Translations under genes and position numbers: made by a program
Notes under the pieces: generated by a model
What the model was told of the DNA's origin: nothing
Database searches by the model: none
Seen by the model: the letters and a program-made list of their open reading frames with translations, nothing else
From: an uncultured Lachnospiraceae bacterium
GTDB lineage: Bacteria; Bacillota; Clostridia; UBA1381
Direction of reading: 5' to 3'
NCBI GenBank assembly: GCA_964422725.1
Contig: CAYRCC010000002.1
Coordinates: 28,694 to 92,693, forward strand
Length of the DNA stretch: 64,000 nt
Part shown: piece by piece, positions 1,614-22,439 of the stretch
Layout of the letters: each line of letters begins with the position of its first letter
How positions within the stretch are numbered: the first letter of the stretch is position 1

Positions 1614-2600
1614 TCAACTGTTATGAGCACATTTAACCATATCTCCGACTAAATCTTTATACATTTCTTCCAATATCTTTGTCGGTTTCCAGCCAAGCCG
1701 CCGCAGTTTATCCGAGGACAGCCTGAGTTCTGTTGCGGGTGCGTAACCATACCTTGCTGAATTTTCGGTTTCATATACAACACTGATTTTACCGTCTGCA
1801 AGCTTTTCCGCAACTAACTGTGCCATTTCGCGTATTCGCATTGTGTTTTCCTCGTTCACCACATTGTACACTTCACCGTTCTCCCCTTTATGCAATATAG
1901 TAAATATCGCATTTACAACATCTTCGGAAGCACAGTAGTTTCCCATCGACATTCCCAAAGTTCTGAGCACAATATCCTTGTTTTCAATCACCGCCCTTGC
2001 AAACTGTACAAAAACACGGTTATCCCCCTGCAAAACTCCCTTTCCGAAAGTCTGCGCAAGACGTGCAATTCTCACCGGAACTCCATACTCCTGACAGTAA
2101 ATATGGCAATAATGTTCAGCCATACGTTTTCCCATCGAATAACAGCTGCGCACCGAACTTAAATCAATACTTCCAAGCTGTTCTTCCGAACGTGCCGTTC
2201 CCGTATCTTCAACCAAACCATAAACCTCCATTGACGATACGTACACCATCGCTTTAACCTTCTTTGCTCTTGCAAACTCCAATACACTCTGTGTTCCCAA
2301 AACTATTCCGTTTGCCACCTCAACAGGCTTTTCAACCATTTCGGACGATTTGGTGACCGATGCGCAATGAATTATGTAATCTATATGGTTTTCAATATCG
2401 GCGCTGTTAATTTTTTCGACTGACGTATTTATAAATTCCAATCTTAAATTATCATATTCCGAATACATAAACTCCGCTTTCTTTATATCACGCACAGGCA
2501 ATATTATTCTTGCGTTTTCATATTCATCTAAAATCCTATCAACCAATAAATGTCCTATAAAACCGGTCGCGCCGGTAATCAAAAACACAGTATTATTCAT
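1614..2600 (-). CDS. NAD-dependent sugar epimerase/dehydratase (extended SDR)
   Basis: N-terminal LITGATGFIGHLL (GxxGxxG) and catalytic YSMGK (YxxxK). 328 aa. There is a 4-nt stop/start overlap with the upstream gene. Confidence 0.85.
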   Translation of the reverse strand: MNNTVFLITGATGFIGHLLVDRILDEYENARIILPVRDIKKAEFMYSEYDNLRLEFINTSVEKINSADIENHIDYIIHCASVTKSSEMVEKPVEVANGIVLGTQSVLEFARAKKVKAMVYVSSMEVYGLVEDTGTARSEEQLGSIDLSSVRSCYSMGKRMAEHYCHIYCQEYGVPVRIARLAQTFGKGVLQGDNRVFVQFARAVIENKDIVLRTLGMSMGNYCASEDVVNAIFTILHKGENGEVYNVVNEENTMRIREMAQLVAEKLADGKISVVYETENSARYGYAPATELRLSSDKLRRLGWKPTKILEEMYKDLVGDMVKCAHNS

Positions 2601-3817
2601 ATATGCTTTACCTCAATATTATCCCAGCCGTCTAACCCAAAAAAATCTATAACTTTCCACTTCGTATCACTGTAACAGCAATCGGGATACAAAGCCGTCT
2701 TTTTACATTCCGCCTCTTTTATAACATCACATACTCCGCTCCTAACACCTATAAAAGTCCCGGCATATTCAACCGCTGACTTCAGTTCATCTAACGGCAC
2801 TCTTAATTCGGCCGTTTCGGCAAGTGCCTCTTCTTCACCGGTTACATTGGTAAAAATTTTATATCCCATATTTTTATAATGAGAAATAATTTTAAACCAA
2901 ATATCCTTATCAATTCCGGCTACAGACTTTGAATAAGGTGCCAAAATAACAGTTTTTCCTTGGCTGATTATATCCAAACCGCGGAATTTTTTACAGGCTG
3001 TCGGTTTCTGCGGTACTGACTCTTTATCCAATCCATACACGCCATATTTATAAAAATCTTCAAACTTTATAAACTTAACCTTTAACGCCTGAATCATTTT
3101 ATTGGTATAGGGTCTGTCGTGATGAGCTATAAATGCATTTTTTTCATCAGTATACAGCACAGCCTGTACCAATTCGTCCATTTCATTTTGCAAAATCGTC
3201 ATTACATTCCCGACACCGAACATCTTGACAATTCTGCCGCACGCATTTCCTACGGCAATAACGGTGTAATCAAAAATATTGTTTTTATCCAAATAATATT
3301 TCAAATATGACATCGCATAGTATACATCACCCAACGCATTAAACGGACATAATATCAAAAAGCTGTTTTTATACTCTCGTTTTATACTTTCAAGCAGTGC
3401 AATTCCTCGTTTTACTCTCTTGTACTTTTTGTCAACTACATTCCGGGAAAGTGAATATTCCGAGAATGTATTGTATTCTACAACCTTTTCTATATCTCCT
3501 TTATAACCGATGTCGCTAAGCTGCTTCACCATTGCCGCATACGCTCTCGATGCAATACAGACAACAGACTGCTTGGAATTATCCGACATTACAGTCTGCG
3601 GCGGAACAATCGGAACACTTTCGTATGAACTGCCGTGTTTGGCTATGTTGTTGTCAAGTATGGCAACAGGAGTATAACCGTAAAACACAAGCATTTTCAC
3701 CAATTCCTCGGTAGCATTGCAGTGTCCGAAAAGATATATGCTTTTACCCGCAAACCCATTTTCGCGTATTAACGATTCAACATTAGTTTTCATTTCATCA
3801 TAGTGCTGTTTATCCAT
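2597..3817 (-). CDS. Putative glycosyltransferase with an N-terminal Rossmann-like module and a GT9-like (heptosyltransferase-like, GT-B) body. Paralog of 13675..15051.
   Basis: LCPFNALGDVYYAMSYL resembles the GT9 LGD motif. The C-terminal TVILAPYSKS...GYKIFTNV...AGTFIGVRSGVCDV parallels TVLVSPYAGH...GFTVCTNC...AGYFVGVRSGFCDL in the paralog. The family assignment is tentative. Confidence 0.55.
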   Translation of the reverse strand: MDKQHYDEMKTNVESLIRENGFAGKSIYLFGHCNATEELVKMLVFYGYTPVAILDNNIAKHGSSYESVPIVPPQTVMSDNSKQSVVCIASRAYAAMVKQLSDIGYKGDIEKVVEYNTFSEYSLSRNVVDKKYKRVKRGIALLESIKREYKNSFLILCPFNALGDVYYAMSYLKYYLDKNNIFDYTVIAVGNACGRIVKMFGVGNVMTILQNEMDELVQAVLYTDEKNAFIAHHDRPYTNKMIQALKVKFIKFEDFYKYGVYGLDKESVPQKPTACKKFRGLDIISQGKTVILAPYSKSVAGIDKDIWFKIISHYKNMGYKIFTNVTGEEEALAETAELRVPLDELKSAVEYAGTFIGVRSGVCDVIKEAECKKTALYPDCCYSDTKWKVIDFFGLDGWDNIEVKHI

Positions 3818-3820
3818 AAC

Positions 3821-4120
3821 TCACCCATTTATAACCAACTTTAACAGTTCATTACTGTTTATAATTTTCGTATTATACAAATTCCAAAGTCCGACAAAGC
3901 GACTTTCCGTTGCCGAAATGACAATAATTTTATCCGTAAATTCGTATAACGTATACAAACGTTTGATATCTTCATTATTTTCCTCAAACAGAATCAATAT
4001 GTCATCACCGACAAATTTGTCTTTTTTGCATACTTTGAACCATTTACAAACAACTTCATCAGTTAAAATAACTATTTTTCTGTATTTATTTACGCACAAT
4101 TCAATTTCGGATATATTCAT
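3821..4120 (-). CDS. Small hypothetical protein (99 aa), partner of the downstream GT9-like gene
   Basis: The ORF is tightly packed, with a 3-nt gap to the next gene. LILFEENNEDIKRLY resembles VLIFPENDEELINCI in the 146-aa ORF at 15051..15491. Confidence 0.5.
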   Translation of the reverse strand: MNISEIELCVNKYRKIVILTDEVVCKWFKVCKKDKFVGDDILILFEENNEDIKRLYTLYEFTDKIIVISATESRFVGLWNLYNTKIINSNELLKLVING

Positions 4121-4147
4121 ATTATAATGTTCCTTTTTAATTAACGC

Positions 4148-5036
4148 TTATTTCACAAATTCAAACACAATATAATCGCTTAATCCCTTTTCTTCCAAAT
4201 TCGCTTTCCATAATTCGTCCAAACCCTTTGATATAAAACTATACTCCTTATGTCTTCCGGGACACTTATTTTTCATCCAATAAACAAAATTACCCAATCC
4301 ATACCTCTGATAATACTTACAAACATAATTATCTATTCCGCAGAATTTCGCGATTACATCAAAACTCCCTTCACCAAGCACCCAAGGATGCTGAGTTGAA
4401 AACAGAAACGATTCATAATCACTTCCCAACAATTCACGCATAACAGGCGCATCGGTAGGCGTACCGATTATGGCTTTTCCCCCCTTTTTTAACAGCTCAT
4501 ATATTTCCCACACAAACAATTTCGGGTCTTGAATATGCTCAATTACATCAAACGAAACGATTACATCTATTTTACCTTTATAATCTTTTAATGCATCTCT
4601 TGAATAACTAAATACCCCCCCGATAACCTTTATTTTCCATTTCCGCTTTGTATGCATTTGACGGCTCAATCGCAATTATTTCTTTTGCCACAGTATTTAT
4701 ATAGTCCAAAAAAGCTCCGCCGCCGCAACCGACATCAGCCACTATTTTATTTCTGAAAATCTCTGTACCTGTAATTCTGAATTTATCCATACTTTCACTG
4801 TCATGCGCAGAATAAAATTTTTCTATTTCGGAGGTACCTTCCAATTTCTCTCTGTACTCTTTACTTTCGTAATAAGTCTTATAATCTTCTTCCAAGTCAA
4901 TATGCCATATCGTTTTACACTTATTGCATTGGTACATATTTACTTCTTCTTTATAATAATTTCCTACTTTTCCGTCACGTATTTTTCCTGTATACGTAAT
5001 TTTAGTATCTTGACTGTCACACAATTTACAATTCAT
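4148..5036 (-). pseudogene. Class I SAM-dependent methyltransferase with an N-terminal zinc ribbon, split into two ORFs by a +1 frameshift in a G7 tract
   Basis: ORF 4608..5054 carries CKLCDS...CNKC and the SAM motif VADVGCGGGAF. ORF 4148..4675 carries the post-I motifs DVIVSFDVIEHIQDP...LLKKGGKAIIG. The frames switch exactly at the C7 run at 4615-4621 (G7 on the coding strand). With G6 the reading would be ...ENKGYRGVFSYSRD... in one frame. Confidence 0.7.
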
Positions 5037-5062
5037 AATCATGCTCCTTTGCATTGTAAAAA

Positions 5063-6199
5063 TTATATACTGTCAGGCATGGCATACATTATTGTATCGC
5101 CCGACGAATACATATAATGCCTCAAATAGACCTTATAATTACATTTCAACAATTTAATAAAATTGTATAAAACCAATAAATCATCTTGCAAATGATATGC
5201 ACAAATTGCAAGAATCGGTTTATTTGCTTCAATTACGTCCCTCGCGCCCTCCAATGCATTTCGCTCCGCGCCTTCAATATCAAGCTTAATAAAACTTACT
5301 TTTGAACAAGCAATATCATCTATTTTTTCCGTTATAATACTCTTTTCCGCCACTGTTTCGTCATGCACTTGTCCCGACAGCCCTTGACCGCTAAATGAGA
5401 TATGTTTTCCGCTTTCATTCCACAATGCGGATTTATGCAATTGAACATTATGAGGTTTGTAATTGCTGATTTTTCCCTGTATTTTTTGATAATTCTTTTC
5501 TTCAGCCTCGTAACAATGCAAATTAAGAACAACGTCTTTCCCGAGCTCATTAATAAAATATTCAACCGTGTCACCATCAAACGCACCGCCGTCAACTATT
5601 ACACCATTTACAATATAACTTTTTGCATTTTCTGTCAGCACGTCATCATCTGTATATATTTTACTGCAAGATTTTATTTCTTTTAAATATCTTTTTTCTC
5701 TCGTTAATCTGTAATTCAAAATTCCTTCCAACGTATTTTTAGATACTTCGTCTGCCAATCCGCCATACAGCATTTCAAAAGCATCATAATTGTTACTAAT
5801 ATAATCATACTCTGATGACTCATATATCATATTGGTGGTTTCCCATGCCATACTCGTCAATAAATCATATGTTCTATTTAGCAGTTTATCGTCATATTCC
5901 TCTATTTGACATCGAATTTCTTCCATCCACATTGAAGCAATTACAATTGCAGCATCAGGATATTTCCCCATACATTCCTCAAAAGAATATACCATAACTC
6001 CTAATTTTTTCCGTCCTTGCTTTGCCGGATAATTATCCGCAAAACAATTCACTTTAATATTATACTTTTTCAGTATGTTAAATACATATTCGCCGCTCTG
6101 ACCCGCTCCAAATATAATTATATTAGGATATTTATTCAATTTTTTCAATATACCGTCGCCAATTATATTTTTTTCAAATTTATTAAATTCTAAATTCAT
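5063..6199 (-). CDS. FkbM-family methyltransferase with an N-terminal Rossmann-like module
   Basis: VDGGAFDGDTVEYF and FIKLDIEGAERNALEGA...PILAICAYH are FkbM signatures. The N-terminus reads IIIFGAGQSGEYVFNILKK...CFADNYPAKQG. The likely start is MNLEFNKF at 6199, after AAGGAA. The longer ORF to 6331 overlaps the upstream gene. Confidence 0.8.
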   Translation of the reverse strand: MNLEFNKFEKNIIGDGILKKLNKYPNIIIFGAGQSGEYVFNILKKYNIKVNCFADNYPAKQGRKKLGVMVYSFEECMGKYPDAAIVIASMWMEEIRCQIEEYDDKLLNRTYDLLTSMAWETTNMIYESSEYDYISNNYDAFEMLYGGLADEVSKNTLEGILNYRLTREKRYLKEIKSCSKIYTDDDVLTENAKSYIVNGVIVDGGAFDGDTVEYFINELGKDVVLNLHCYEAEEKNYQKIQGKISNYKPHNVQLHKSALWNESGKHISFSGQGLSGQVHDETVAEKSIITEKIDDIACSKVSFIKLDIEGAERNALEGARDVIEANKPILAICAYHLQDDLLVLYNFIKLLKCNYKVYLRHYMYSSGDTIMYAMPDSI

Positions 6200-6218
6200 A
6201 AAAAACATCATTCCTTGC

Positions 6219-7352
6219 CTATTTCCTATGTACAGCATACAAAACTGTTTCTGACTGTCCATATCTATATTGCCGTATATAATATTCATACGTTTTTGGC
6301 AATATTTCCTCAATAAGCAACGGAATATCAAAAAAGTCTTCCGGTTTATGATAAATACATATTGCCAATACGGGCTTATCTCGCTGTATAATCTGACGCG
6401 AACCTAATAATGCCTTATGCTCCGCTCCTTCTATATCCATTTTTATAAAACCTATTTTATTTTCATATATCAAATTATCCAATGAGTTGCATTGAACAAC
6501 GTTACCGTGATCACTAATTCTGCAGCCCTCGCCATTTCCAAAATTGTCTGTATCAAAATATAAACTTCCTTCTTTATCCCATACAGCATATTTTAAAGTA
6601 AGAATATTTTTATTGTCGATATTTTTAGCACATTCATTTAACCTAAAGTATGATTTCTCCGCTGCTTCTAAACAAATATATAAATCATTCCACTCCGGAA
6701 ACTTTTCAAAAAAAATGTTCATTGTATCACCGACATATGCACCGGCATCTACAAACGCACCCGACCAATTGCAATTTTTCAATATATCCATATCAAAATA
6801 TTGCTCTGTTTCTTCAGAAATATACTCCTTCATAGTATTCAGCCAAGCCATATCCTTAGATATTCTATAATTCAACAAATTTCTGAAAATCACTTTTGAC
6901 TTTTCATCAGCCAATATTTTGTAAACATTTGCAAAACTTTCATAATTATTTTTTATAAAAGCTAAATCTTCATTTGATTTCAAAGACATACCTGCCGGTT
7001 GAAAATAGTACAAATCATCTTTGCAAACTCCTTGTTTTTCTAACTGCAGTGATATTTCGTTATATGCTGTACTTGAAATTATAATTAAACAACCTAAATT
7101 ATCCTTTATTTTATCGGGAGAAATAACCGTAATACCCTCCCAACAACCTCCTATTTTTTCTTTACTGTTATCGCTATATGCAATTACCTTATCAAGCATA
7201 TTCGCTTTACGTAATATTTCCGCTGTTATCCTCCCACCGATTCCGGCACCAAAAATTATTACTTTCGCATACTTAGCTGCCTTTTCCAAAAGAGCCTTCT
7301 CATACTCTTCAGTACCATCATTCCAAACAATAAAATCCTTTAATTCTTCCAT
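6219..7352 (-). CDS. FkbM-family methyltransferase, tandem paralog of 5063..6199
   Basis: VDAGAYVGDTMNIF and FIKMDIEGAEHKALLGS...PVLAICIYH. The N-terminus reads VIIFGAGIGGRITAEILRK...AYSDNSKEKIG. The start MEELKDF at 7352 is preceded by AAGGAG with a 9-nt spacer. Confidence 0.8.
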   Translation of the reverse strand: MEELKDFIVWNDGTEEYEKALLEKAAKYAKVIIFGAGIGGRITAEILRKANMLDKVIAYSDNSKEKIGGCWEGITVISPDKIKDNLGCLIIISSTAYNEISLQLEKQGVCKDDLYYFQPAGMSLKSNEDLAFIKNNYESFANVYKILADEKSKVIFRNLLNYRISKDMAWLNTMKEYISEETEQYFDMDILKNCNWSGAFVDAGAYVGDTMNIFFEKFPEWNDLYICLEAAEKSYFRLNECAKNIDNKNILTLKYAVWDKEGSLYFDTDNFGNGEGCRISDHGNVVQCNSLDNLIYENKIGFIKMDIEGAEHKALLGSRQIIQRDKPVLAICIYHKPEDFFDIPLLIEEILPKTYEYYIRQYRYGQSETVLYAVHRK

Positions 7353-7365
7353 CAATATAAACTCC

Positions 7366-8016
7366 TTAAATATGCAGCACATTATCCGCTATTATGCGTG
7401 CAAATTCCAAATCTTCTTCCGTATCTATATCAACAGCCTCAATTTCTCCGACTTCCTGAATATACGGCTTAAATCCTATTCGCCGACCATACTTTTTCCA
7501 TAGTTCTTTTGAAAAAATAAAAAATCCGCTTGTTTCGGCATAAACAGGCTCTAAATCTTGCGTTTTCGGCACTTCCTCAATTTCATAATTTATCGGTTTT
7601 CCCTCAAACCAAGCAAATGTTTGCAGTTTTTTTGCAGTAAATGCGGAATCATATCCTTCATATAATACTTTGTGAAGCGCATTTTTAAGCGTTTCTTTCT
7701 TTATGAACGGCGCAGTCGTAAGCAATGCAATATATATATCCGCATCAACATCATTCAAAAATGCAGTATATGTATCCTTTGCTCTTATTTCGTCACCGTC
7801 AAGCCATTCTCCTCTTTTTAAGAAGTCAGCCCCATTCGGAATATATTCTTTAATTTTCTCGTTACTGCAATAAACTATAACCTCGTCAATTTCGTCAATA
7901 CCCAACGCCGTATCCAAGCAATGATAGCAAAGAGGTTTGTGTCCAAGCATCTGAATATTCTTATGCGGAACACGTACACTATTCATTTTTATCGTTGCAA
8001 ACGCTACTATCTTCAT
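7366..8016 (-). CDS. Cytidylyltransferase of the NeuA/KdsB superfamily; candidate CMP-Kdo or CMP-ulosonic acid synthetase
   Basis: The N-terminal KIVAFATIKMNSVRVPHKNIQMLGHKPLCYHCLDTAL matches the R-x-P-x-KN...GKPL motif of acylneuraminate/Kdo cytidylyltransferases. 216 aa. Confidence 0.75.
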   Translation of the reverse strand: MKIVAFATIKMNSVRVPHKNIQMLGHKPLCYHCLDTALGIDEIDEVIVYCSNEKIKEYIPNGADFLKRGEWLDGDEIRAKDTYTAFLNDVDADIYIALLTTAPFIKKETLKNALHKVLYEGYDSAFTAKKLQTFAWFEGKPINYEIEEVPKTQDLEPVYAETSGFFIFSKELWKKYGRRIGFKPYIQEVGEIEAVDIDTEEDLEFARIIADNVLHI

Positions 8017-8023
8017 AAATTCT

Positions 8024-8689
8024 TCACAACACTTTCATAATTTCATCTATACGTTCTTTATAATTTCTATCTCCGTTAAACAGAGCCGCCGTTCCCAAAA
8101 CAAAGTTCTTTACTCCGATTTTACTGAGTCTTTGTATTCGCTCTGTATTGCACGCACCATCCATACCAATTTCAAATTGATAATCCTCTTTCAATTCCAA
8201 CAATTTTTTGATTTTATTCTCCGCATACGGCAAATACATCTGACCGGCATTTCCGGGATTCACTCCCATAACCATAACTCGGTTTGTTACGTTCAGCAAC
8301 TCTACTATCGACTCAACAGATGTTCCGGGATTCAAAACTATACCCGCCTCAGCTCCAAACTCACCTATTTTTTGAAGGGTAGTTATCGCATGATACTCGG
8401 ATTCCGGATGTATATAAATTATATCCGCGCCGCAATCTATAAAAAGCTCAATATATTTCATAGGATTTTCTATCATCAAATGCACTTCGGTCTGCAATTT
8501 GGTCGTTTTGCAAATATATTTAATATCCTGTAAACCCATTCCGAAATTAGATACATATTGTCCGTCCATTATATCCAAATGCAATATATCAGCACCGGCA
8601 TCTTCTAATTTTCCGATTTCATTATGTAAATTACCGAAATCCGCGCACATCATTGACGGACAAAGATTAATATTTTTACAATTCATCAT
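8024..8689 (-). CDS. rpe: Ribulose-phosphate 3-epimerase family protein
   Basis: CPSMMCADFGNLHNEIGKLEDAGADILHLDIMDGQYVSNFGMG and VMGVNPGNAGQ are typical Rpe TIM-barrel motifs. Confidence 0.85.
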   Translation of the reverse strand: MMNCKNINLCPSMMCADFGNLHNEIGKLEDAGADILHLDIMDGQYVSNFGMGLQDIKYICKTTKLQTEVHLMIENPMKYIELFIDCGADIIYIHPESEYHAITTLQKIGEFGAEAGIVLNPGTSVESIVELLNVTNRVMVMGVNPGNAGQMYLPYAENKIKKLLELKEDYQFEIGMDGACNTERIQRLSKIGVKNFVLGTAALFNGDRNYKERIDEIMKVL

Positions 8690-8690
8690 C

Positions 8691-9191
8691 TTACTCTATA
8701 TACTTCTCCTTTATCAACCATTCAATAAAATCTCTCACCGCACCGTTTCCGCCTTTAACGGATGAAATATGCTCACACAATTTTCTTACCTCGGAAACAG
8801 CATTTCTGGGACACGCTCTTACTCCGCACAATTTCATTGCCGGCACATCAATCATATCATCTCCGATATACGCCATATTCCTTGTATCACATTGCAATTC
8901 TTCCGATAATTGCTTTATTGCGGCTTCCTTATCCTTTACACCCTGCAATATATAGTCTATTTCCAATTCTTTCGCGCGATTTAAAACTATATCGGACTTT
9001 CTGCCCGTCATTATTACGGTTTTAACTCCATACTCAGGCAACATCTCGTGTATTCCGTACCCGTCCTTGATATCAAAAGCCTTAAACATTTCTCCGTTTT
9101 GACCCATATATATCTTTCCGTCAGTCATTGTCCCGTCTACGTCCATAATAAAGACTTTTATTTTTGTTTCTTCTGCCTTTCTTCTACTCAT
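8691..9191 (-). CDS. kdsC: KdsC-type HAD-IIIA phosphatase (3-deoxy-manno-octulosonate-8-phosphate phosphatase-like)
   Basis: FIMDVDGTMTDGKIYMGQNGEMFKAFDIKDGYGI...MTGRKS...YIGDDMIDVPAM carries the DxDG, KxF-DG and GDD motifs of the KdsC family. Confidence 0.8.
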   Translation of the reverse strand: MSRRKAEETKIKVFIMDVDGTMTDGKIYMGQNGEMFKAFDIKDGYGIHEMLPEYGVKTVIMTGRKSDIVLNRAKELEIDYILQGVKDKEAAIKQLSEELQCDTRNMAYIGDDMIDVPAMKLCGVRACPRNAVSEVRKLCEHISSVKGGNGAVRDFIEWLIKEKYIE

Positions 9192-9195
9192 TCTG

Positions 9196-10089
9196 TCATT
9201 TCAACCTCGCAATAATTGCATCATTTATCATCATATTTTCAATCTTCTCATCAGGAAACAGCAGCACCGTCATACCGCCCGAAATACTGCACCCCTCTGC
9301 CGCTCCGACACCGTCCAGTACAGATAAACACTCAATCTTTTCGCTTTCATTTTTATAGCAAGAAATATCCTTCTTTCGGCATATTTCATATTTGACTTCG
9401 CTTATCCATTTATCATTTACAACTATCTCTTTTCTCGACATTCTTTCCGGTTTAATTGCCTGTACCGCTTTTTCTATATGCAATTCTCGCATATTACCAT
9501 TACTGTCTTTTCTGAAATAATCATAAAATCTATATGTAAAATCACTGCCATATTCAATTTCATAGACAAAGCTTCCGGCAGTCATCGCATGCAGAGTTCC
9601 GGCTTCAACGCAAACATATTCATCTTTTTCCACCGGATAATGCGTTGTTATTTTTTCCATCTCACCATTTTCCACCGCTTTGACAACCTCAGTCTTTGTT
9701 TTACACTCACACCCGTTATATATCCATCCGTCCACCGGCGGCTGTAAAAAAATCCACGACTCCAATTTGCCAATCTTTTTGCCTTCAAGCAAAGCTGCGG
9801 TTTCATCATCAGGATGAACCTGTATACTCAAATGCTCTTTTGCCTCTACCAATGCAACAGTCAGCGGAAACTCTTCATATTCTTCCAGATTCCACTTTTT
9901 CTTATCTCTTTTGAATACATCATATAAGCTTTTACCTCTATCCTTGCCGTTCAATACAGTATTAGACATACTTTTATGCCCATTCACCATATACAAATGT
10001 CCAATCGGCTTATCAAAATCTTCCCTGTATTTTTTGAGTATATCTCCGCCCCATATAGTTTCGTGGCATACAGATTGCAATATAATCAT
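9196..10089 (-). CDS. Type I phosphomannose isomerase
   Basis: HETIWGG near the N-terminus and LSIQVHPDDETA (metal-binding cupin motif). Confidence 0.8.
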   Translation of the reverse strand: MIILQSVCHETIWGGDILKKYREDFDKPIGHLYMVNGHKSMSNTVLNGKDRGKSLYDVFKRDKKKWNLEEYEEFPLTVALVEAKEHLSIQVHPDDETAALLEGKKIGKLESWIFLQPPVDGWIYNGCECKTKTEVVKAVENGEMEKITTHYPVEKDEYVCVEAGTLHAMTAGSFVYEIEYGSDFTYRFYDYFRKDSNGNMRELHIEKAVQAIKPERMSRKEIVVNDKWISEVKYEICRKKDISCYKNESEKIECLSVLDGVGAAEGCSISGGMTVLLFPDEKIENMMINDAIIARLK

Positions 10090-10108
10090 TTTCTATCTCC
10101 ATCAATCT

Positions 10109-10927
10109 TTAAAAACCATACTTATACTTATTCTGAATATTTCTTATATCTATCAATTCCCTTAAAAGCATTTCGAGCATATCCAGTTTCAACATACAGC
10201 TCCCGTCACATTTAGCATTATCGGGATCATTATGAACCTCCATAAACAAACCGTCAACCGCCCCCGTTGCCATCGCGGCTCTTGCTAAATACTGAACATA
10301 TTCTCTTTTTCCGCTGTTGCCGAAATTTTCACCGCCGCCGGATATCTGTACACTGTGCGTAGCATCAAAAACAACCGGATAACCAAGCTGTTTTAGTCGT
10401 ACCAACCCTGTCATATCCACTATCAGATTATTATATCCAAATGCAGTACCGCGTTCACACATCATTATGTCTTCATTCCCGTAGTACCTAAATTTGCCGG
10501 CAACCTTTCCCATTTCTTCCGGACTAAGAAATTGTGCTTTTTTTACATTAATAACTTTTCCGGTTTTGGCAGCAGCCTCTATTAAATCCGTTTGTCTGCA
10601 CAAAAACGCCGGAATCTGTATGATATCCGCAACTCCGGCAACTTCTTTCGCCTGCCATGCCTCATGAATATCGGTAGCTATACTTACGCCTATTTCCCTT
10701 TTAGCTTTTTCCAAAATACGCAAGCCTTCTTCCAGTCCCAAACCGCGATAATTCTCAGCCGAAGTTCTGTTTGCTTTATCCCATGACACTTTAAAACAAT
10801 ATTTAACACCCAGCTTGTCCGTAATTTTTTTAATATTTTCCGCCAGATACATCACATTTTCTTCTGATTCAAGCGCGCATGGACCGCCTATAAAGAAAAA
10901 CGAATCTTTTGTTAAAAACGAATTCAT
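10109..10927 (-). CDS. kdsA: 3-deoxy-8-phosphooctulonate (Kdo-8-P) synthase
   Basis: FFIGGPCALESEE...KVSWDKANRTS...YRGLGLEEGLRIL...DIHE...DIIQIPAFLCRQTDL...VNVKKAQFLSP...FDATHSVQ shows near-canonical KdsA blocks. A Cys occupies the metal-ligand position. Confidence 0.9.
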   Translation of the reverse strand: MNSFLTKDSFFFIGGPCALESEENVMYLAENIKKITDKLGVKYCFKVSWDKANRTSAENYRGLGLEEGLRILEKAKREIGVSIATDIHEAWQAKEVAGVADIIQIPAFLCRQTDLIEAAAKTGKVINVKKAQFLSPEEMGKVAGKFRYYGNEDIMMCERGTAFGYNNLIVDMTGLVRLKQLGYPVVFDATHSVQISGGGENFGNSGKREYVQYLARAAMATGAVDGLFMEVHNDPDNAKCDGSCMLKLDMLEMLLRELIDIRNIQNKYKYGF

Positions 10928-10975
10928 TGTAATATTGTCCTTTCTGAAATAAACGCATTATAAAATACTATATCT

Positions 10976-12070
10976 TTAACTGAATTTTATACAATCCAAC
11001 ATATCCCACAACCCAAATTCTACATTTTCAAAAATAACATTTTCCAGTAAAATTTTGCTGAAATATTTCTTAAATTGCTTTTCATCATCACCCGCAATTT
11101 GAGGCAAAAACGTATTATATTCTCCGGTTTTGGCATTAAAAACAATTACCTTACCGTCATATGTAGAATAAATAATTCCGCGCTCCGAATCCAACATTTT
11201 ACAACACATTACATTACAATTTATCACTGTAATTTCTCGCATTTCTTCTGTTGGTTCGGATATTAGCGTTCTGTCACATTCCAAGCAGTTTGTTTGCTTA
11301 TTTATTTTAAACAACCTGTCACCGCACAAAGGAATACAATAAATATATTCTTCATTTTGCAGTATGTTTTTAAATCCACCGCTAAATTCCGTGTTTTTTA
11401 TTACGCTAAATTCCGTACCGCCGTCCCACTTAATAACATCCGAATGTAATTTCATCGAAATCCAATAATTATCACCATCAAACACTATATCCGCAAGTCC
11501 GTCATTTTCAACAACCGGAACTGTATGTATTTTATGTTCTTTCGTGTCCATATTGAATTCTATTACAGCATTTTTCTGCCAACATGGCATCATACAAATG
11601 TTGTCGCCGCACACCTTCACATTTTCAATAGTTACCGAATCCTCATTATCAACTCCGCCCAACGATTTATACCAGTCATCTATGTACTCTGTTTCATATG
11701 TTTTCAAATCAAGCTTTACTATAGCTTTATATCTTCCCGGAAAAATATATGCACTATCCTTATAAATTCTGATATTGGAAAATAAATTAAACACATTTTC
11801 TGTTCCGCTCAAATCAATCGGAATTTTTGTACATTCTTTTGAGGACAAATCATAAATTATAATATCTCCGGCATTTCTGGGTGCTATAATAAGCTTATTA
11901 TCATAATATGCCATTGCCATATACTGCATAAACTGTTTATCCTTATCCGCTATATCAAAATAACATTCAGCCGCTATTTTTTTTGTTTTTAAATCAACTC
12001 TAAAAATAGCATTAAAAAAAATATTATAAAACCATACGTTATCTCCGTTTACAGCAACATCATAAAACAT
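10976..12070 (-). CDS. Hypothetical repeat protein, probably a 7-bladed beta-propeller
   Basis: Seven spaced repeats of a strand-turn motif: IFRVDLKTKKI, IIIYDLSSKEC, IVKLDLKTYET, VIEFNMDTKEH, VIKWDGGTEFS, LFKINKQTNCL, VIVFNAKTGEY. The start is uncertain. ATG at 12070 is the first start that does not overlap the upstream gene. Confidence 0.5.
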   Translation of the reverse strand: MFYDVAVNGDNVWFYNIFFNAIFRVDLKTKKIAAECYFDIADKDKQFMQYMAMAYYDNKLIIAPRNAGDIIIYDLSSKECTKIPIDLSGTENVFNLFSNIRIYKDSAYIFPGRYKAIVKLDLKTYETEYIDDWYKSLGGVDNEDSVTIENVKVCGDNICMMPCWQKNAVIEFNMDTKEHKIHTVPVVENDGLADIVFDGDNYWISMKLHSDVIKWDGGTEFSVIKNTEFSGGFKNILQNEEYIYCIPLCGDRLFKINKQTNCLECDRTLISEPTEEMREITVINCNVMCCKMLDSERGIIYSTYDGKVIVFNAKTGEYNTFLPQIAGDDEKQFKKYFSKILLENVIFENVEFGLWDMLDCIKFS

Positions 12071-12119
12071 CAGCTGTCTATACTTTTTAATATATTTTTC
12101 CAAAAAATCCACTTCCCAA

Positions 12120-13478
12120 TCAAAACAATTTATCAAAATCCACTCTTTCAAAAGCCTCAAGCTTACCGCCGCGTGTAGCGTTATATATTCTAAAACCGTG
12201 CCTTCTTGAATATATTTCCGCCATTTCATATGCTTTTTCCGTTTTTTTGTTAGCTAATACACTGTCAAAATTTTTAAGCACTCTTTTTTCTTGTTCCGAA
12301 TAATAATTCTTCAAAAAATGATTTCTATCGTCCGTCACATTGCCAACAGTCGAATTATCAACACCTATTAAATATATTTCACTAAATCCCATATATGCCG
12401 CAACTTGCAAGCCCACATCATAAGTCACTGTATATCCCCAACAAACCCCATTACATATATTATCCGAGAACCCGGGGTAATTAGGCCAATATTCTTGCAT
12501 CTTTAAATGAATATGATTAACATTATCATTATAATAATTATTTAGTCCGTCACAAAAAACATCGCCAATAAAAATATCCGCACTGATACTATTAATATCA
12601 TTACAACAGTTAGACAGCATACACGCATCTGTTATTGCAAAATAATTTGCTCGCCAACCGGTTTTATTATATATCTGATAGATTTTATTAAATCCAAAGC
12701 ATATTTCATTGTGCTTATGTAATGTTTCCAAATCCTCTATTCTTAAGCTGGGTCCGTTTCCTACGAGAAACACTCTTTCACCTTTATGAATATTTTTAAA
12801 CTTCTTTAGCTGCGGATAATAAAATGACTTTTCAAACTTATCCGAATCATAAATATCAATCAAATCAAACGAATGTGCTCTCTGCGCAATTCTATCACGA
12901 ATATCACTTTCAGTACGTGCCGTATTTATAATCAAACAATCTATTTCACCGTAAATATCATCTAAAGCGACACATTGAATATCAACACAAGGATTACAAT
13001 CATCATTTTCGGATATTATTCCTTTAATACAGCTTATATCTCCCGTCTGTATTGCTATTTCCGATATAAGATACTGCATGTAATTATTTGTACCATATAT
13101 AGCTATTTTCTTATATTTCTTCACCGAATTATCGCTTAAAACTTTAGTATATGATACAGTTTCTGCTTTTCCGTATAAATTATACCATGGTAATACATCA
13201 TTAATCTTCCATATATCTTCTTCTCGAAAAATGAAATATCTATAAATACCCGCACCTTTTAATTGTTCTTCCATTTCTATATGATATTTTTCTGATGTTA
13301 TAACTACTATATAGTTCTCATTGTATACAGCTTGAAATTGAGAAAAGCTGATTATGTCTTTCATTTCCAATTCATTTCCGAAACGATTGTTATCTACAAA
13401 ACATTTTACCCGCTCATATCCTAAAAACCATAGAGCCTTTTTCCCCATTTCTCCTGCACCGAATAATATATATTGCAT
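12120..13478 (-). CDS. DUF115/MptE-like (Maf- and GT42-sialyltransferase-like) putative CMP-ulosonic-acid transferase with an N-terminal Rossmann-like module
   Basis: RVFLVGNGPSLRIEDL...ICFGFN parallels the GNGPSL motif of Maf and CstII-type transferases. GLQVAAYMGFSEIYLIGVD parallels CstII AIALGYKEIYLSGID. The N-terminus reads ILFGAGEMGKKALWFLG...CFVDNN. The ATG at 13478 follows GGAGAAG. The track ORF begins at a TTG at 13511. Confidence 0.65.
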   Translation of the reverse strand: MQYILFGAGEMGKKALWFLGYERVKCFVDNNRFGNELEMKDIISFSQFQAVYNENYIVVITSEKYHIEMEEQLKGAGIYRYFIFREEDIWKINDVLPWYNLYGKAETVSYTKVLSDNSVKKYKKIAIYGTNNYMQYLISEIAIQTGDISCIKGIISENDDCNPCVDIQCVALDDIYGEIDCLIINTARTESDIRDRIAQRAHSFDLIDIYDSDKFEKSFYYPQLKKFKNIHKGERVFLVGNGPSLRIEDLETLHKHNEICFGFNKIYQIYNKTGWRANYFAITDACMLSNCCNDINSISADIFIGDVFCDGLNNYYNDNVNHIHLKMQEYWPNYPGFSDNICNGVCWGYTVTYDVGLQVAAYMGFSEIYLIGVDNSTVGNVTDDRNHFLKNYYSEQEKRVLKNFDSVLANKKTEKAYEMAEIYSRRHGFRIYNATRGGKLEAFERVDFDKLF

Positions 13479-13674
13479 TTCATCTTCTCCATATAAATTA
13501 TCAAATTTCAAACCATAACATTCGTAATTGCATTAATATCATTCCAAACCAATACGTCCACTTCTTCTAAGTCGGCGTATTTTGCTTAACTTCTTTCGGC
13601 ATAATTACCGTTTTCCACTGAAAACACCGAACGATAGTGTCTTGATGCTAATCAACCATTTACCGCAAAAATAA

Positions 13675-15051
13675 TTATTTTTCCTCAACCAGCTTTTCTA
13701 AAATCTCGTCCATAAATTCATCTTTATGATTACAATCATTCACAAGCTCAATCATATTTTTCCCCAATCCCATATTTTCAAATCCGAAAGTTTCTATTGA
13801 CCCTGTGACCGAACCTGTTTCATATAATACTATTTTTTTGCAGTCGGCATTGCAAAGCAAATCGCAGAAACCACTTCTCACTCCGACAAAATATCCTGCC
13901 GTTTCCGCAAATTCAACACAGTCCTGAATTTCTATAAACGGTGCTGCGGTATTATCAAGCGGCGGTTCGCCCGGTCCGCCGCAATTTGTACATACCGTAA
14001 ATCCCATATCTTGCAGTTTTTTAACAAAATAATTCCAATTTTCCTCTTGCAAGTCAATGCTGAAATGTCCCGCATAAGGTGAAACAAGTACTGTTTTGCC
14101 GGGTATTAAATCATACTTTTCAAATAATTCTCTGACATATTCGGTTCTTTTCGGAAAAGTCGGATATATAGGCTCCATTTTCTTTTCAAATTCAAATACG
14201 TAATCAAAAGTATCTCTAAAATTGATATTTGAATGTTCATACATTGTCACATAAAAATTACATTCACCATGATAAACTGCATTTCTAACATTAATTTTAT
14301 CTCCCATCGCTTTAAGCATAGTAAGCCAATTTATGTGTGCATCTTCAAACGTAATTAATTCGATATGCTTAAATCCTAAAGCCTCTGCCAAACGCTTAAC
14401 GGAATTTTTGGTAACCACAAGCACGCAGTCACATTCAGCCACGCTCTTTACGCCCATTTTATGCGGTAATAAACATGCGAAAATATATAAATCACCAATA
14501 CTTGTAGGGTGCATTAACCAAATAGGAATATGTCCGTATTTTTCGTCAATTTTGATATATGACTTGTATCCCTTTGAAATTAGCTTTCTGATATTTCTCC
14601 AGTTTTTACCTTGAAATATTATGCCCTGTTTTGCCTTTTTAAGTTCGTTTCTTGTATTTCTTCTGCCACCGAAAAGAACAAAAAAGTCCTTATCTTTTTT
14701 TAATCCTAAACCTGATAATTGTATTTCAAATTCTTGCCAGCAGAAATTGTTAATCACCAAAATTACAATATCCTTTTCCTCGGCAAGACTCTCTACCGAC
14801 TGTGATATTATTCCTACTCGCGAAACATTTTGTTTTTGTTCATTGTTATCGGCAATAATACTTATGCTCAATCCCAATTTTTCAATAATTTCTCTGACTT
14901 CATAAGCATTTCCCCATACTCCGACAATCGCAATCCTCTTATTTTCAAATACTTTTTTTTCTTTTAATTTTTTAATTTCAAAATATAAATTTTTAAAATA
15001 TTCTTCTCTTCCTTTAAGCCATCTAATATCAAATTTCTTGTTTTTGTTCAT
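13675..15051 (-). CDS. Putative GT9-like glycosyltransferase with an N-terminal Rossmann-like module. Paralog of 2597..3817.
   Basis: IAIVGVWGNAYEVREIIEKLG...IADNNEQKQN, then LMHPTSIGDLYIFACLL, then TVLVSPYAGH...FVGVRSGFCDLL. The domain order matches the 406-aa paralog. Confidence 0.55.
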   Translation of the reverse strand: MNKNKKFDIRWLKGREEYFKNLYFEIKKLKEKKVFENKRIAIVGVWGNAYEVREIIEKLGLSISIIADNNEQKQNVSRVGIISQSVESLAEEKDIVILVINNFCWQEFEIQLSGLGLKKDKDFFVLFGGRRNTRNELKKAKQGIIFQGKNWRNIRKLISKGYKSYIKIDEKYGHIPIWLMHPTSIGDLYIFACLLPHKMGVKSVAECDCVLVVTKNSVKRLAEALGFKHIELITFEDAHINWLTMLKAMGDKINVRNAVYHGECNFYVTMYEHSNINFRDTFDYVFEFEKKMEPIYPTFPKRTEYVRELFEKYDLIPGKTVLVSPYAGHFSIDLQEENWNYFVKKLQDMGFTVCTNCGGPGEPPLDNTAAPFIEIQDCVEFAETAGYFVGVRSGFCDLLCNADCKKIVLYETGSVTGSIETFGFENMGLGKNMIELVNDCNHKDEFMDEILEKLVEEK

Positions 15052-15491
15052 TATTTTACTTTTCCAACCTCGCCCAATAAATAATTATACACTATTTTGT
15101 CCATGGTAATATTTTTCAAGCCAACAACTTGTTCTTTGACATATTTTGCATTCCCCGACAATGATACCTTAAATGACATAATTTTCAACATAGGCGACAT
15201 TAATATATAAGCGTAACGAGTAATGCTGTCTACTTCTTCAGCAGTCAACTCAATCGTTTGATACGGCAATTTTGTATACCCGTCAAAGCTTGGCAGTTTA
15301 AAACTTGAAATAATCGTAATAAAACTATACCTTTTTTCCAATACATACATATATTTCAAAATACAGTTTATTAACTCCTCATCGTTTTCGGGAAAAATCA
15401 GCACAACCTCATTATCAACCTTTTTGATCAGACTTTCAAGCGTTTTTTTGCCTTTATTAATAATTTCAATACGCTCGTTAAATTCTTTCAT
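15051..15491 (-). CDS. Small hypothetical protein (146 aa), partner of the downstream GT9-like gene
   Basis: Its stop overlaps the start of 13675..15051 by 1 nt. It shows weak similarity to the ORF at 3821..4120. Confidence 0.5.
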   Translation of the reverse strand: MKEFNERIEIINKGKKTLESLIKKVDNEVVLIFPENDEELINCILKYMYVLEKRYSFITIISSFKLPSFDGYTKLPYQTIELTAEEVDSITRYAYILMSPMLKIMSFKVSLSGNAKYVKEQVVGLKNITMDKIVYNYLLGEVGKVK

Positions 15492-15511
15492 TCAAAATTC
15501 CTCTTTCTCAT

Positions 15512-16093
15512 TTATCCTTTCAAAACTTCACCGATATGACCACCCGGGTGATTTCTCTTAAACTGACCAATCTCCAATTTCATCTTATTTGCAACCATCA
15601 TCGCCAGACCCTGCAGCACAATCAAATTCATCGTGGTTGAATTATTCGGCATAATGTTCCACAAATCCCCCTCGTGAATTAAATCTATAACCAAGCTGTT
15701 AGGTATCTCTCTTGCCAGCGTGCTTTCTTTTTCAAATGTCAAAAGCCACATATCAACATTTCTTTCTTTAAGCAGCCGCGCAAGATACACCGACTCTGAT
15801 GTTTCTCCGCTCTTGGTCAGAATTATTACCATATCACCGTCCTTGACAAGACCCATATCGCCGTGTACCGCCGAATTGGTATGCAGAAAATACGCATCAA
15901 GTCCCATAGACACCATAGAACCCACAAATTTATCACAAATCGGAACGTTTTTTCCCAATCCCGAAACTATTATTTTATGCCCCGATTTAATAGTTGCCAC
16001 TGCGTGTTCTACCATTTTTTCAAAAATATCTTCATCAACCGAATTTAACGAATGTGTTATTTCAGCCAACTGTTTTTCAAAATAACTTATCAT
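15512..16093 (-). CDS. SIS-domain sugar-phosphate isomerase, KpsF/GutQ type (arabinose-5-phosphate isomerase-like), lacking CBS domains
   Basis: IIVSGLGKNVPICDKFVGSMVSMGL...NSAVHGDMGLVKDGDMVIILTKSGETSE matches the KpsF pattern G-x-GKS...HGDLG...SxSGE. Confidence 0.75.
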   Translation of the reverse strand: MISYFEKQLAEITHSLNSVDEDIFEKMVEHAVATIKSGHKIIVSGLGKNVPICDKFVGSMVSMGLDAYFLHTNSAVHGDMGLVKDGDMVIILTKSGETSESVYLARLLKERNVDMWLLTFEKESTLAREIPNSLVIDLIHEGDLWNIMPNNSTTMNLIVLQGLAMMVANKMKLEIGQFKRNHPGGHIGEVLKG

Positions 16094-17595
16094 AGTACTT
16101 CCTCCAAATAATATAATCCATTATAAAATGCACCGCATATGCTGTCATAGTCCTGCCAAGCATATGTGGTAAGCGACAGCCATATTACGGCATGCAGCAG
16201 TTTTATTTCATTTGCATCTGTATCGGTCAACTCAAAAAAGTCTTTCTCCATATCTTCCCAATTATTTGACTCAATTTGGATATCTGCGCCGTTATCGGTT
16301 ATTTCCAATCGAAACTTTTTCAAATTGAACCTGTCATAATTTCCCACTACCGAGTAATAAAGCTTTGCCCAATCGTATCTTTCATCGCCGTACAATTCGG
16401 TAAAGCCAAAATATCCCCTCGGGTCTATCAATACAGGGTCACCGTTTTTTCTTATCATCAAATTTGAAAATGTACAATCACCATGTATAAAGCTGAAGCT
16501 TTCGCATTTTAACTGTTCAAGTTTTTTCTCCAATTCAGATTTGTAATAAAAAACATTTCTGCACTTTCTGCCGTTCACCGTAACATACCGGTCGTTTGCA
16601 AACGGCACCAAATCCCTTATTTTCGACAGTCTGTCCATGGTTTTGTTAAAATATGCCTCGTGCATACTAAACGTGTCCGCCGGAACGCTTTCCGAAGAGT
16701 GCAACAGCTTTAGTGCGTCAACTAATTTTCTTAAAACACCTTTTTTGGTTTCATAGTCAAGCTGACATTCATATATATTCTCGCCCTTAATATACTCCAT
16801 TTTCAATGGATTTGTATCGTATATCTTCGGCAATATACCTATATTTAGTTCCCTTGCCTTTTCATACCATACACACTCACGTTTTGCAAGTGTTCTGCCC
16901 TGCGAATCCACAGGCTCTTTTATGAGTACATCTCCGTCAACGGTTATTCGGTTAAACGGCCGACACTTTTGTGTTGTCAGCTTTTCATATTCCTCAATAA
17001 GTCCAAACTCTCTTGTACCGGCAAGCGAAATCGCCTTGTACTTCATACCTTGCTGCTGCATCCAGCGCACAAGTTCACCGCTTTGCGGTACATCTGCAAT
17101 TTTGCTTTTATCGGAAAACAGGAAAAATCCGGCAACACCATGTTTGCACGATTTTTCCTCAACAAACTCGCCGTCGTAATAGCTCCATCTGCAAGGAAAT
17201 GTAGTCGATATTCCTATGTAATCGTTTTCTGCGCTGTATTCTCCGTCATACTCATTCGGCAGTTTAAAGTCAGCCGGAAGTATTAAGTCTGACCACACAA
17301 GCATAAACGATTTATTCTCCGGAATCAAATCTATCGCTTGCTTTACTCCCGAACAAGTTCCCGTTCCGTCCGCATCCACTACCTGATACTTGACATCAGC
17401 AAAACAACTTAAATATTCACGCAAAACTTCCTTTTTATAATCAGCTATTATTACAAATTTTTTGTCAGAATACTTCCTGAACAAATGAAATATCATAGGC
17501 AAATTTTCTATCGGTACAAGTGCCTTGGGTTTATTCTTGGTTAAATAGCCCAATCTTGTCCCTTTACCGCCCGCCTGCACCACTATATAATCCAT
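16090..17595 (-). CDS. Fusion protein: N-terminal sugar-phosphate nucleotidyltransferase and C-terminal APH/choline-kinase-like phosphotransferase
   Basis: IVVQAGGKGTRLGYLTKNKPKALVPI is the NTP-transferase G-loop. FIHGDCTFSNLMIRKNGDPVLIDPRG is the kinase catalytic loop (HxDxxxxN...D). Confidence 0.7.
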   Translation of the reverse strand: MDYIVVQAGGKGTRLGYLTKNKPKALVPIENLPMIFHLFRKYSDKKFVIIADYKKEVLREYLSCFADVKYQVVDADGTGTCSGVKQAIDLIPENKSFMLVWSDLILPADFKLPNEYDGEYSAENDYIGISTTFPCRWSYYDGEFVEEKSCKHGVAGFFLFSDKSKIADVPQSGELVRWMQQQGMKYKAISLAGTREFGLIEEYEKLTTQKCRPFNRITVDGDVLIKEPVDSQGRTLAKRECVWYEKARELNIGILPKIYDTNPLKMEYIKGENIYECQLDYETKKGVLRKLVDALKLLHSSESVPADTFSMHEAYFNKTMDRLSKIRDLVPFANDRYVTVNGRKCRNVFYYKSELEKKLEQLKCESFSFIHGDCTFSNLMIRKNGDPVLIDPRGYFGFTELYGDERYDWAKLYYSVVGNYDRFNLKKFRLEITDNGADIQIESNNWEDMEKDFFELTDTDANEIKLLHAVIWLSLTTYAWQDYDSICGAFYNGLYYLEEVL

Positions 17596-17600
17596 ATTTG

Positions 17601-18935: not shown

Positions 18936-18960
18936 ACCACATTCCTCTACTTACTTATGA

Positions 18961-19677: not shown

Positions 19678-19704
19678 TATAACGCCCCTTATCAATTTTA
19701 TCTG

Positions 19705-22437: not shown

Positions 22438-22439
22438 CA

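Follow-up and report, generated by a model that had tools for sequence, protein, structure and literature searches.

A Rossmann-like module shared by glycosyltransferases and methyltransferases of a Lachnospiraceae glycan island, and its possible role in nucleotide binding

Why do enzymes with unrelated catalytic bodies, encoded in a single gene block, begin with the same small domain? The question arises in a 64-kb stretch of DNA from an uncultured Lachnospiraceae bacterium (GenBank assembly GCA_964422725.1, contig CAYRCC010000002.1, positions 28,694 to 92,693 of the forward strand; hereafter the window, to which coordinates refer unless a locus is named), where a sequence-only reading had picked out five peptides with a common Rossmann-like pattern. 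All five peptides are present in five minus-strand open reading frames (ORFs) between 2597 and 15051. According to our profile comparisons, the five modules are members of a known, catalogued domain family, of moderate interest as a marker of tailoring enzymes. We favor a reading in which the module is a nucleotide-handle or nucleotide-sensor domain; from its sequence and by analogy with related domains, we put the probability of this at about 0.55, slightly better than even odds.

One module on three kinds of catalytic body

The five proteins, labelled A to E, and their module copies are as follows (aa, amino acids; HMM, hidden Markov model; GT, glycosyltransferase).

2597–3817, minus strand: protein A, 406 aa, N-terminal module followed by a GT9-like GT-B body
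3473–3754, minus strand: module of A (aa 22–115; HMM coordinates), with glycine loop FGHCNAT, DNN-x2-K-x-G and QL
5063–6331, minus strand: protein B, module followed by an FkbM methyltransferase; the TTG start as listed would make it overlap gene C
5861–6136, minus strand: module of B (HMM coordinates)
6219–7382, minus strand: protein C, 387 aa, module followed by an FkbM methyltransferase
6999–7277, minus strand: module of C (HMM coordinates)
12120–13478, minus strand: protein D, 452 aa, module, degenerate module and Maf/MptE-like (DUF115) body
13227–13478, minus strand: module 1 of D, canonical, beginning at residue 1
12849–13115, minus strand: module 2 of D, degenerate (aa about 122–210), placed by hhalign and conserved in the D family
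13675–15051, minus strand: protein E, 458 aa, N-terminal helix, module and GT9-like GT-B body
14671–14952, minus strand: module of E, with glycine loop VGVWGNA

The start of B is probably the ATG at 6211 (382 aa), eight bases past the stop of C, and family alignment places the true start of D at 13478 (MQYILFGAG), the ORF having been listed as 12120–13511.

The module is about 90 aa long (85–94), rather than the roughly 50 aa first proposed, and in the AlphaFold models its elements follow the order β1–αA–β2–hairpin–αB–β3–αC–β4. Its signature is F-G-x-G…D-N-x3-K-x-G…I-x-S…E-I-x2-Q-L-x3-G. The glycine-rich loop differs by enzyme class, reading GAGxxG in B, C and D, GHCNAT in A and GVWGNA in E (E-type GxWxNA), with the second and third glycines lost in A and E. 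Protein E had 66 homologues; in the E family, G44, N69 and Q111 are invariant and D68 and K73 nearly so. The second copy in D matched the module profile in hhalign with a probability of 95.8% (E = 6.8e-9, 79 columns). It has lost the second and third loop glycines, the DN, the K and the Q, and has kept the fold, as judged by the β-α-β pattern in the AlphaFold 2 (AF2) model.

Pairwise identity among the five modules was low (20–36%), and some of the pairwise BLAST E-values were weak. Profiles nevertheless separated the five from every other ORF of the window. In searches of its 495 six-frame ORFs, HMMs built from any four modules recovered the fifth at E = 1e-7 to 3e-16, the best non-member having E ≥ 0.005, and HMMs lacking a whole enzyme class still recovered both members of that class (3e-6 to 1e-11). 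A foreign-only profile, made from 57 module instances of other genomes and no window sequence, returned exactly these five proteins (1e-13 to 1e-25; next ORF, 0.63) and gave no score to a classical Rossmann short-chain dehydrogenase/reductase (SDR) with GATGFIG at 1614–2600. These tests bear out the initial observation that the five proteins share an N-terminal Rossmann-like pattern, and, because a specific family HMM can be built, the likeness exceeds that of a generic Rossmann unit.

The module had been described as fused to five different catalytic domains; there are only three, a GT9-like GT-B body (A and E), an FkbM methyltransferase (B and C) and a Maf/MptE-like body (D). A is paralogous to E over the full length of both (24% identity, E = 2e-21), B to C likewise (32% identity, E = 3e-44), and A is 45% identical to the A-type proteins of two related loci from other genomes, L001 and L004. 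The body types themselves had been guessed correctly as GT-B-like, FkbM and GT42/DUF115-like, as indicated by Foldseek for the GT9-like and Maf bodies and by Pfam and NCBIfam for FkbM. Both FkbM proteins scored above the curated cut-offs, with 38 bits (B) and 44.3 bits (C) for Pfam Methyltransf_21 (cut-off 22.7) and 50.8 bits (B) and 65.3 bits (C) for NCBIfam fkbM_fam (cut-off 37.7). The bodies of A and E had no Pfam or NCBIfam match at E ≤ 0.1, including Pfam Glyco_transf_9, and by sequence neither falls within GT9. The AF2 model of E (predicted local distance difference test score (pLDDT) 92.4; predicted template modelling score (pTM) 0.89) matched WaaC (6dfe and 2h1h), a Veillonella GT9 protein (3tov) and the protein heptosyltransferase TibC (4rap) in Foldseek, with E-values of 5e-6 to 3e-5, probability 1.0 and TM(target) ≤ 0.55; the predicted fold of this body is GT-B, nearest to that of the GT9 heptosyltransferases.

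Protein D reached 35.8 bits against Pfam MptE-like (cut-off 34.6). Its AF2 model (pLDDT 94; pTM 0.90) had as its top Foldseek match the flagellin glycosyltransferase Maf (5mu5, 7e-6), ahead of MptE HPPK (8sd5, 4e-4) and the sialyltransferase ST8SiaIII (about 1e-2). The Maf likeness was seen by fold search only, as neither D nor its family profile had a significant match to the PDB by sequence. D is without the C-terminal helical domain of canonical Maf and ends about 75 residues past the MptE-like domain (452 aa, against 666 for 5mu5).

A large family within a known superfamily

When the five-sequence module profile was run exhaustively with HMMER against 1.84 billion representative proteins, it matched 11,217 clusters at E ≤ 1e-3, of which 845 reached E ≤ 1e-10; a word-index protein search with the five-module alignment, a method too insensitive for a 95-aa profile, returned 2 matches. 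The module belongs to a large, mobile family that is not peculiar to this locus. The 149 best matches had it at the N terminus in 97 instances, internally in 63 and at the C terminus in 48, and 66 of these proteins carried two to four copies. N-terminal placement, assumed from the outset, is therefore true of all five window proteins and fails as a rule for the family. A Pfam scan of 102 of the best matches identified glycosyltransferase partners (GT2, GT1/GT4, GT8, GT11 and WbsX), methyltransferase partners (FkbM, TylF and several class-I families) and others (radical-SAM/SPASM, cytidylyltransferase, DUF5672 and RfbT).

The 79 genome loci that encoded relatives of A and E, most of them from Lachnospiraceae and other Clostridia, had 46 further module-bearing ORFs. 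A Pfam scan of 42 of these identified, among others, GT2, radical-SAM, aldo-keto reductase with 4Fe-4S, GT4, LicD, pyruvyl-transferase and DUF1919 bodies. Two or more module-bearing genes, and up to five, lay within ±10 kb in 50 of the 79 loci. The highest density seen was eight module-bearing ORFs in 21 kb (locus L088, ena:ERZ27256811 k141_1335608, 1–21362), with bodies comprising WbsX, DUF5672, two GT2, GT90, an E-type GT9-like body, an aldo-keto reductase with Fe-S and a 462-aa protein. In the window island the module occurs only on late-acting transfer or tailoring enzymes, never on enzymes of precursor synthesis, and the related islands described below have the same pattern.

Fusion had been pictured as an event within this locus, one module being joined to its several enzymes. 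Module identity instead follows enzyme class: across genomes it is 55% between E and the E-type protein of L001, 54% between A and the A-type protein of L004, and 40–41% between D and the Maf-like proteins of L004, whereas modules of different classes inside one locus are only 17–33% identical, and 19–33% in the window locus. This grouping by class and not by locus indicates that the fusions are ancient and separate, each enzyme class having long carried a module of its own; recent domain shuffling within the locus was rejected, since class-wise identity exceeds locus-wise identity. The GT9-like body also exists without the module, standing alone in 17 of the 79 loci and in the short homologues P0065–P0068, and in P0064 a GT2 domain takes the module's place.

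To which known domains is the module related? A 62-sequence module profile searched against all PDB sequences gave the following matches.

3nkl, N-domain of a WbpM/PglF-type dehydratase: 1.5e-10
Rex: 3.5e-8
VioB, a PglD/NeuD-type acetyltransferase: 5.8e-7
4rv9, mycarose 3-C-methyltransferase, residues 319–393: 2.5e-3
2g6t, uncharacterized clostridial protein, residues 4–85: 3e-3
WbaP, residues 148–224: 5e-3

WeeI was matched more weakly than VioB and 3nkl; in the VioB alignment, L-D-N stands opposite the D-N of the module. By these sequence comparisons, the module falls in the same superfamily as CoA_binding_3, the PglD/NeuD/VioB N-domain, the Rossmann domain of Rex and the Methyltransf_14 domain. 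The proposed resemblance to the nucleotide-sugar-binding N-domain of PglD and NeuD is upheld by the VioB, 3nkl, WeeI and WbaP matches and by sub-threshold NCBIfam NeuD and Pfam PglD_N matches in the window modules. Separately, the Clostridium acetobutylicum protein 2g6t, an uncharacterized HI1244 homologue, was also matched by the D model in Foldseek with probability 1.0, and may be the sole experimental structure with an N-terminal module of the family on a non-acetyltransferase body.

Three known systems offer closer comparison. The domain of WbpM, PglF and WbaP (CoA_binding_3, PF13727, the 'DUF' of the large phosphoglycosyl transferases) provides the best match among solved structures by sequence, is likewise a small Rossmann-like accessory on glycan enzymes, and has in common with the module the string G-x-G…D-[DN]-x3-K-x-G…G-[IV]. 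It differs in lying between a helix bundle and the catalytic domain of membrane-anchored proteins, whereas the window proteins are all predicted to be soluble and join the module to GT-B, FkbM and Maf bodies. Two features are specific to the module family, the helix motif Q-L-x3-G and the presence of D-N where the other domain has D-D. The N-domain of PglD, NeuD, VioB and WeeI is likewise about 90 aa long and N-terminal, with the same order of secondary structure, a glycine loop and an acidic pair ending β2; it binds the UDP or dTDP of the sugar substrate. The fold pattern itself, a mixed sheet with three helices, is present in the AF2 models, but in the window the module precedes a GT-B, FkbM or Maf body and never a left-handed β-helix acyltransferase. 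The C-terminal domain of sugar C-methyltransferases (Methyltransf_14), compared here through its Pfam label and the 4rv9 match alone, supplies the commonest label of the best family members and accompanies an S-adenosylmethionine (SAM) methyltransferase that tailors a nucleotide-linked sugar. However, the match spans only positions 50–150 or so of the 160-position model, the window scores are below the cut-off, and that domain is C-terminal, whereas the window module is N-terminal to methyltransferases of the FkbM type and not class I.

Pfam labels on the module varied accordingly among the 102 best database members: Methyltransf_14 on 29, PglD_N on 19, CoA_binding on 9 and C2185-like_N on 5. 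Within the window, isolated modules scored 20.3 (E), 18.6 (B) and 17.4 bits (C) against PglD_N (PF17836; cut-off 23.4), with no match for A or D. For Methyltransf_14 (PF08484; cut-off 23.5), B reached 21.4 bits over positions 70–150 and A reached 12, the others having none. For CoA_binding (PF02629; cut-off 22.3), B scored 24.0 bits as a whole protein and 27.9 as a segment, E scored 13.6, and A, C and D had no match; B is the only one of the five to pass a curated cut-off for the module.

The outcome for C2185-like_N depends on the version of the Pfam model. With the local copy, PF22674.2, none of the five window proteins, A and D included, and none of four relatives tested had a match at E ≤ 1, and isolated modules had none at E ≤ 10. 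The newer, precomputed PF22674.3 is listed for D itself and most of its relatives, and for A-type, Maf-type and TylF-, GT2- and aldo-keto-reductase-fused relatives in related loci; none is on record for E, and among its listed relatives only P0052 and P0056 have it. The newer Pfam thus lists part of the module family under this name, and the domain is catalogued, though unevenly. The literature searched under C2185-like, PF22674 and the Pfam accession names included no paper assigning the module a function, and no functional study of the domain other than on PglD, C-methyltransferases and WbaP. In practice, the family HMM can serve as a marker of glycan-tailoring genes that go unannotated with current Pfam models, such as the GT9-like A and E.

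What the module may do

The domain was fused early, and on separate occasions, to many soluble enzymes that tailor sugars or attach groups to them. If it is a nucleotide handle or sensor, a crevice at the C-terminal edge of the sheet, lined by the glycine loop after β1, the D-N ending β2, the lysine four residues on, the serine after β3 and the glutamine of αC, would hold the nucleotide. That nucleotide could belong to an activated substrate and serve as its handle, as in PglD-type enzymes, or be a free by-product acting as a feedback signal, as has been proposed for the WbaP domain. The class-specific glycine loops would tune which ligand binds. In a second role, suggested by the frequent tandem copies, the degenerate one of D included, the domain would pair with itself.

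Two precedents guide this reading. The N-domain of PglD-type enzymes is a UDP platform, in which two acidic residues ending β2 hold the uracil and ribose and the loop after β1 holds the ribose and phosphate (PMC8040287). The isolated WbaP domain is stabilized by UMP, UDP and UTP, and UMP inhibits WbaP with a half-maximal inhibitory concentration (IC50) of 4.1 µM (PMC10942596). The best-conserved polar positions of the module coincide with the nucleotide contacts of PglD-type enzymes, suggesting that it probably holds a nucleotide. Among 351 module instances, conservation was 88% for F10, 99% for G11, 97% for D35, 92% for N36, 79% for K40, 79% for G42, 91% for Q78, 90% for L79 and 87% for G83, figures that are partly circular because the search profile already held these motifs. 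Of the features typical of the nucleotide-binding class, the first loop glycine (99%) and the aspartate ending β2 (97%) are thus kept, and the second and third glycines are lost in A and E.

Several observations besides this circularity weigh against a nucleotide-binding role. With the local Pfam copy, none of the five proteins reached the PglD_N, Methyltransf_14 or C2185-like_N cut-off. The sequences show a glycine loop that varies from class to class, and A and E have lost part of the classical phosphate-binding element; this makes it unlikely that an identical ligand is bound identically, and the five proteins need not share a ligand. GT-B and Maf-type bodies already own a donor-nucleotide site, so a second one needs a reason, such as an acceptor or effector. 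FkbM enzymes use SAM, and a nucleotide on their acceptors is only conjectural. Finally, module 2 of D has lost every putative ligand residue and is conserved nonetheless, which a structural or pairing role would explain no less readily.

The alternative that survives best, although we consider it unlikely, is a docking or pairing module, serving homodimerization or the association of the late enzymes with one another, in one complex or through a common partner; any module-bearing enzyme could then plug into the island. The two or more copies in many of the best matches are consistent with this, as is the retention in D of a second copy without ligand-type residues, and the related WbaP domain forms most of its dimer interface (PMC10942596). 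Module genes also concentrate in loci, as the pairs within ±10 kb and the eight-gene locus illustrate, but such clustering may merely reflect the clustering of glycan genes. A 1051-aa enzyme swapped into the island of a sister strain carries a module too, and small conserved ORFs before both GT9-like genes could be partners (both are described below). The grouping of modules by class rather than by locus argues the other way, giving no sign of co-adaptation to a locus-specific partner, and the most conserved residues appear to form the classical nucleotide crevice and not an obvious surface patch.

Less probable still, in our estimation, is a broader plug-and-play arrangement in which the module recognizes one shared intermediate or scaffold, which could be a common carrier protein or a nucleotide-linked glycan assembled and tailored ahead of its transfer, with the enzymes being swappable. 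It would explain why the module sits only on late-acting enzymes of many unrelated folds, why up to eight occur in one locus and why the sister strain could exchange a cassette.

Slightly further down the scale, and improbable, the module would be a structural relic, a Rossmann-like cap that steadies or orients the catalytic body without a ligand or partner of its own. The pTM values of the E and D models suggest a module packed rigidly on its body, the glycine loop is degenerate in A and E and module 2 of D is degenerate throughout, and the GT9-like body also occurs without a module. Packing would hardly explain, however, why the G, D-N, K and Q are near-invariant in hundreds of modules that sit N- or C-terminally on bodies unrelated to one another. 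Generic resemblance among convergent β-α-β units, to which the low pairwise identities and weak BLAST E-values might have pointed, is refuted and by far the least probable account, because the leave-one-out, leave-class-out and foreign-only profiles separate the members from all other ORFs, the Rossmann SDR included, and because 845 database clusters share, at E ≤ 1e-10, a signature spanning about 85 columns.

Bacterial surface and flagellar glycans vary widely through tailoring enzymes shuffled between strains. One small domain, present in at least 11,000 clusters, rides on most of the late-acting enzymes of such islands, whether their bodies are GT-B, GT-A, Maf, FkbM, class-I methyltransferase, radical-SAM, aldo-keto reductase, LicD or pyruvyl-transferase. 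If the favored nucleotide-binding reading is right, the module would either mark enzymes that act on nucleotide-linked sugars, and so aid substrate prediction, or sense feedback in general, in which case the WbaP finding would apply to soluble enzymes as well.

The glycan island and its relatives

The five module-bearing genes lie within a compact island.

1614–20091, minus strand: glycan island, 21 ORFs in one all-minus-strand block

Its G+C content is 33–39%, against 42–47% in the remaining window. Precursor enzymes above NCBIfam cut-offs are KdsA (380 bits against 242), KdsC, Rpe and a TarI-like ribitol-5-phosphate cytidylyltransferase; the island also encodes a SIS-only KpsF/KdsD-like isomerase and a PseF/KdsB-like cytidylyltransferase. 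Judging from this set, the island can make donors of the types CMP-Kdo (Kdo, 3-deoxy-D-manno-oct-2-ulosonic acid) and CDP-ribitol. The genes at 16090–19695 suggest phospho-polyol or similar substituents on the glycan.

16090–17595, minus strand: nucleotidyltransferase fused to an APH/choline-kinase-like domain
17601–18935, minus strand: TagF-like CDP-glycerol glycerophosphotransferase family protein (Pfam Glyphos_transf)
18961–19695, minus strand: ribitol-5-phosphate cytidylyltransferase (TarI-like)

None of the 21 island ORFs has a membrane-like segment (maximum KD19 1.56), and genes for an initiating phosphoglycosyl transferase, a flippase, a polymerase and an exporter are all missing from the island. 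Because no membrane protein is encoded among the 21 ORFs, a polysaccharide pathway of the Wzx/Wzy or ABC type within the island itself was rejected. Protein glycosylation in the cytoplasm is a better fit to the predicted soluble gene set than a polysaccharide pathway complete in itself.

Is flagellin the target? The loci L001 and L004 are syntenic with the window island and adjoin flagellar genes (flagellin, FlaG and FliD). The order in L001 is flagellin … IspD, NTP-transferase/kinase, small ORF, E-type protein, SIS, Maf with module, cytidylyltransferase … small ORF, A-type protein, FlaG, FliD; L004 starts with flagellin and has five module-bearing genes. The window island further resembles flagellin glycosylation islands in making Kdo, and the MptE-like/Maf_flag10 body of D in having Maf as its best structural match. 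CMP-Kdo is among the substrates that Maf enzymes accept, and the solved Maf is described as having an N-domain with a Rossmann-like fold that is degenerate and has no known function (PMC11339370); FkbM methyltransferase genes are known from flagellin glycosylation islands (PMC5109656). The window differs from such islands in the short D, with its missing helical domain, and in lacking an adjacent flagellar gene: no flagellin motif or flagellar gene was found in the 64 kb or in the sister-strain locus, and the island is flanked by RimO/RecX on one side and by AraC and pectin-degradation genes on the other. In the 79 related loci, flagellin lay within 10 kb in only four. Flagellin as a certain target was rejected, given that no flagellar gene is nearby in the window or the sister strain; it may, but need not, be the protein that receives the glycan.

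The sister strain (L086/L087; about 95% DNA identity in the flanks) has 4.4 kb in place of window positions 4135–13656, a stretch holding a frameshifted methyltransferase, both FkbM genes, the Kdo genes, a 417-aa ORF and D. Its cassette encodes the 1051-aa Fe-S/FrhB/pyruvyl-transferase with a C-terminal module and a 359-aa protein. The strain is also without window positions 16129–17429 or so (the nucleotidyltransferase-kinase gene) and about 21.3–26.5 kb. The locus is a hypervariable glycan island inside a conserved frame.

Beside the AraC-type regulator that bounds the island, two plus-strand genes at 21355–26417 would encode a candidate GH105-like unsaturated rhamnogalacturonyl hydrolase and a 1325-aa secreted FG-GAP/lyase-like protein, annotations that come from reading of the sequence only; both genes are missing in the sister strain. 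The frameshifted methyltransferase gene (4148–5054, minus strand) belongs to the class-I SAM type with an N-terminal Cys4 zinc ribbon and is split into two frames, with the break at 4615–4621. An intact 295-aa orthologue (L004, 11373–12260) aligns with one frame over residues 1–138 and with another over residues 139–295. The break coincides with a run of seven C (C7; G7 in the coding strand), the sole G/C homopolymer of at least seven in the 64-kb window, and the same gene has a C6 run at 4479–4484. The split may reflect phase variation by a slipped-strand switch, for which the flagellar glycosylation loci of Campylobacter offer a precedent, or it may be a sequencing error.

Small ORFs abut or overlap the start of both GT9-like genes: one of 99 aa before A (3821–4120, minus strand) and one of 146 aa before E (15051–15491, minus strand). 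Neither had a family match in Pfam or NCBIfam. The 146-aa ORF is 29% identical to a 156-aa ORF in the same position in L001 (E = 8e-15), and the 99-aa ORF matches equally placed ORFs of 165 aa in L001 and 124 aa in L004 (E = 2e-4); to judge by sequence and position, both may be partner subunits. The 417-aa ORF between KdsA and D (10976–12229, minus strand), likewise without a family match in Pfam or NCBIfam, has homologues in L004, a protein of 398 aa, and in L001, where the C-terminal half of a protein of 834 aa corresponds to it, homology that marks it as a conserved component of these islands.

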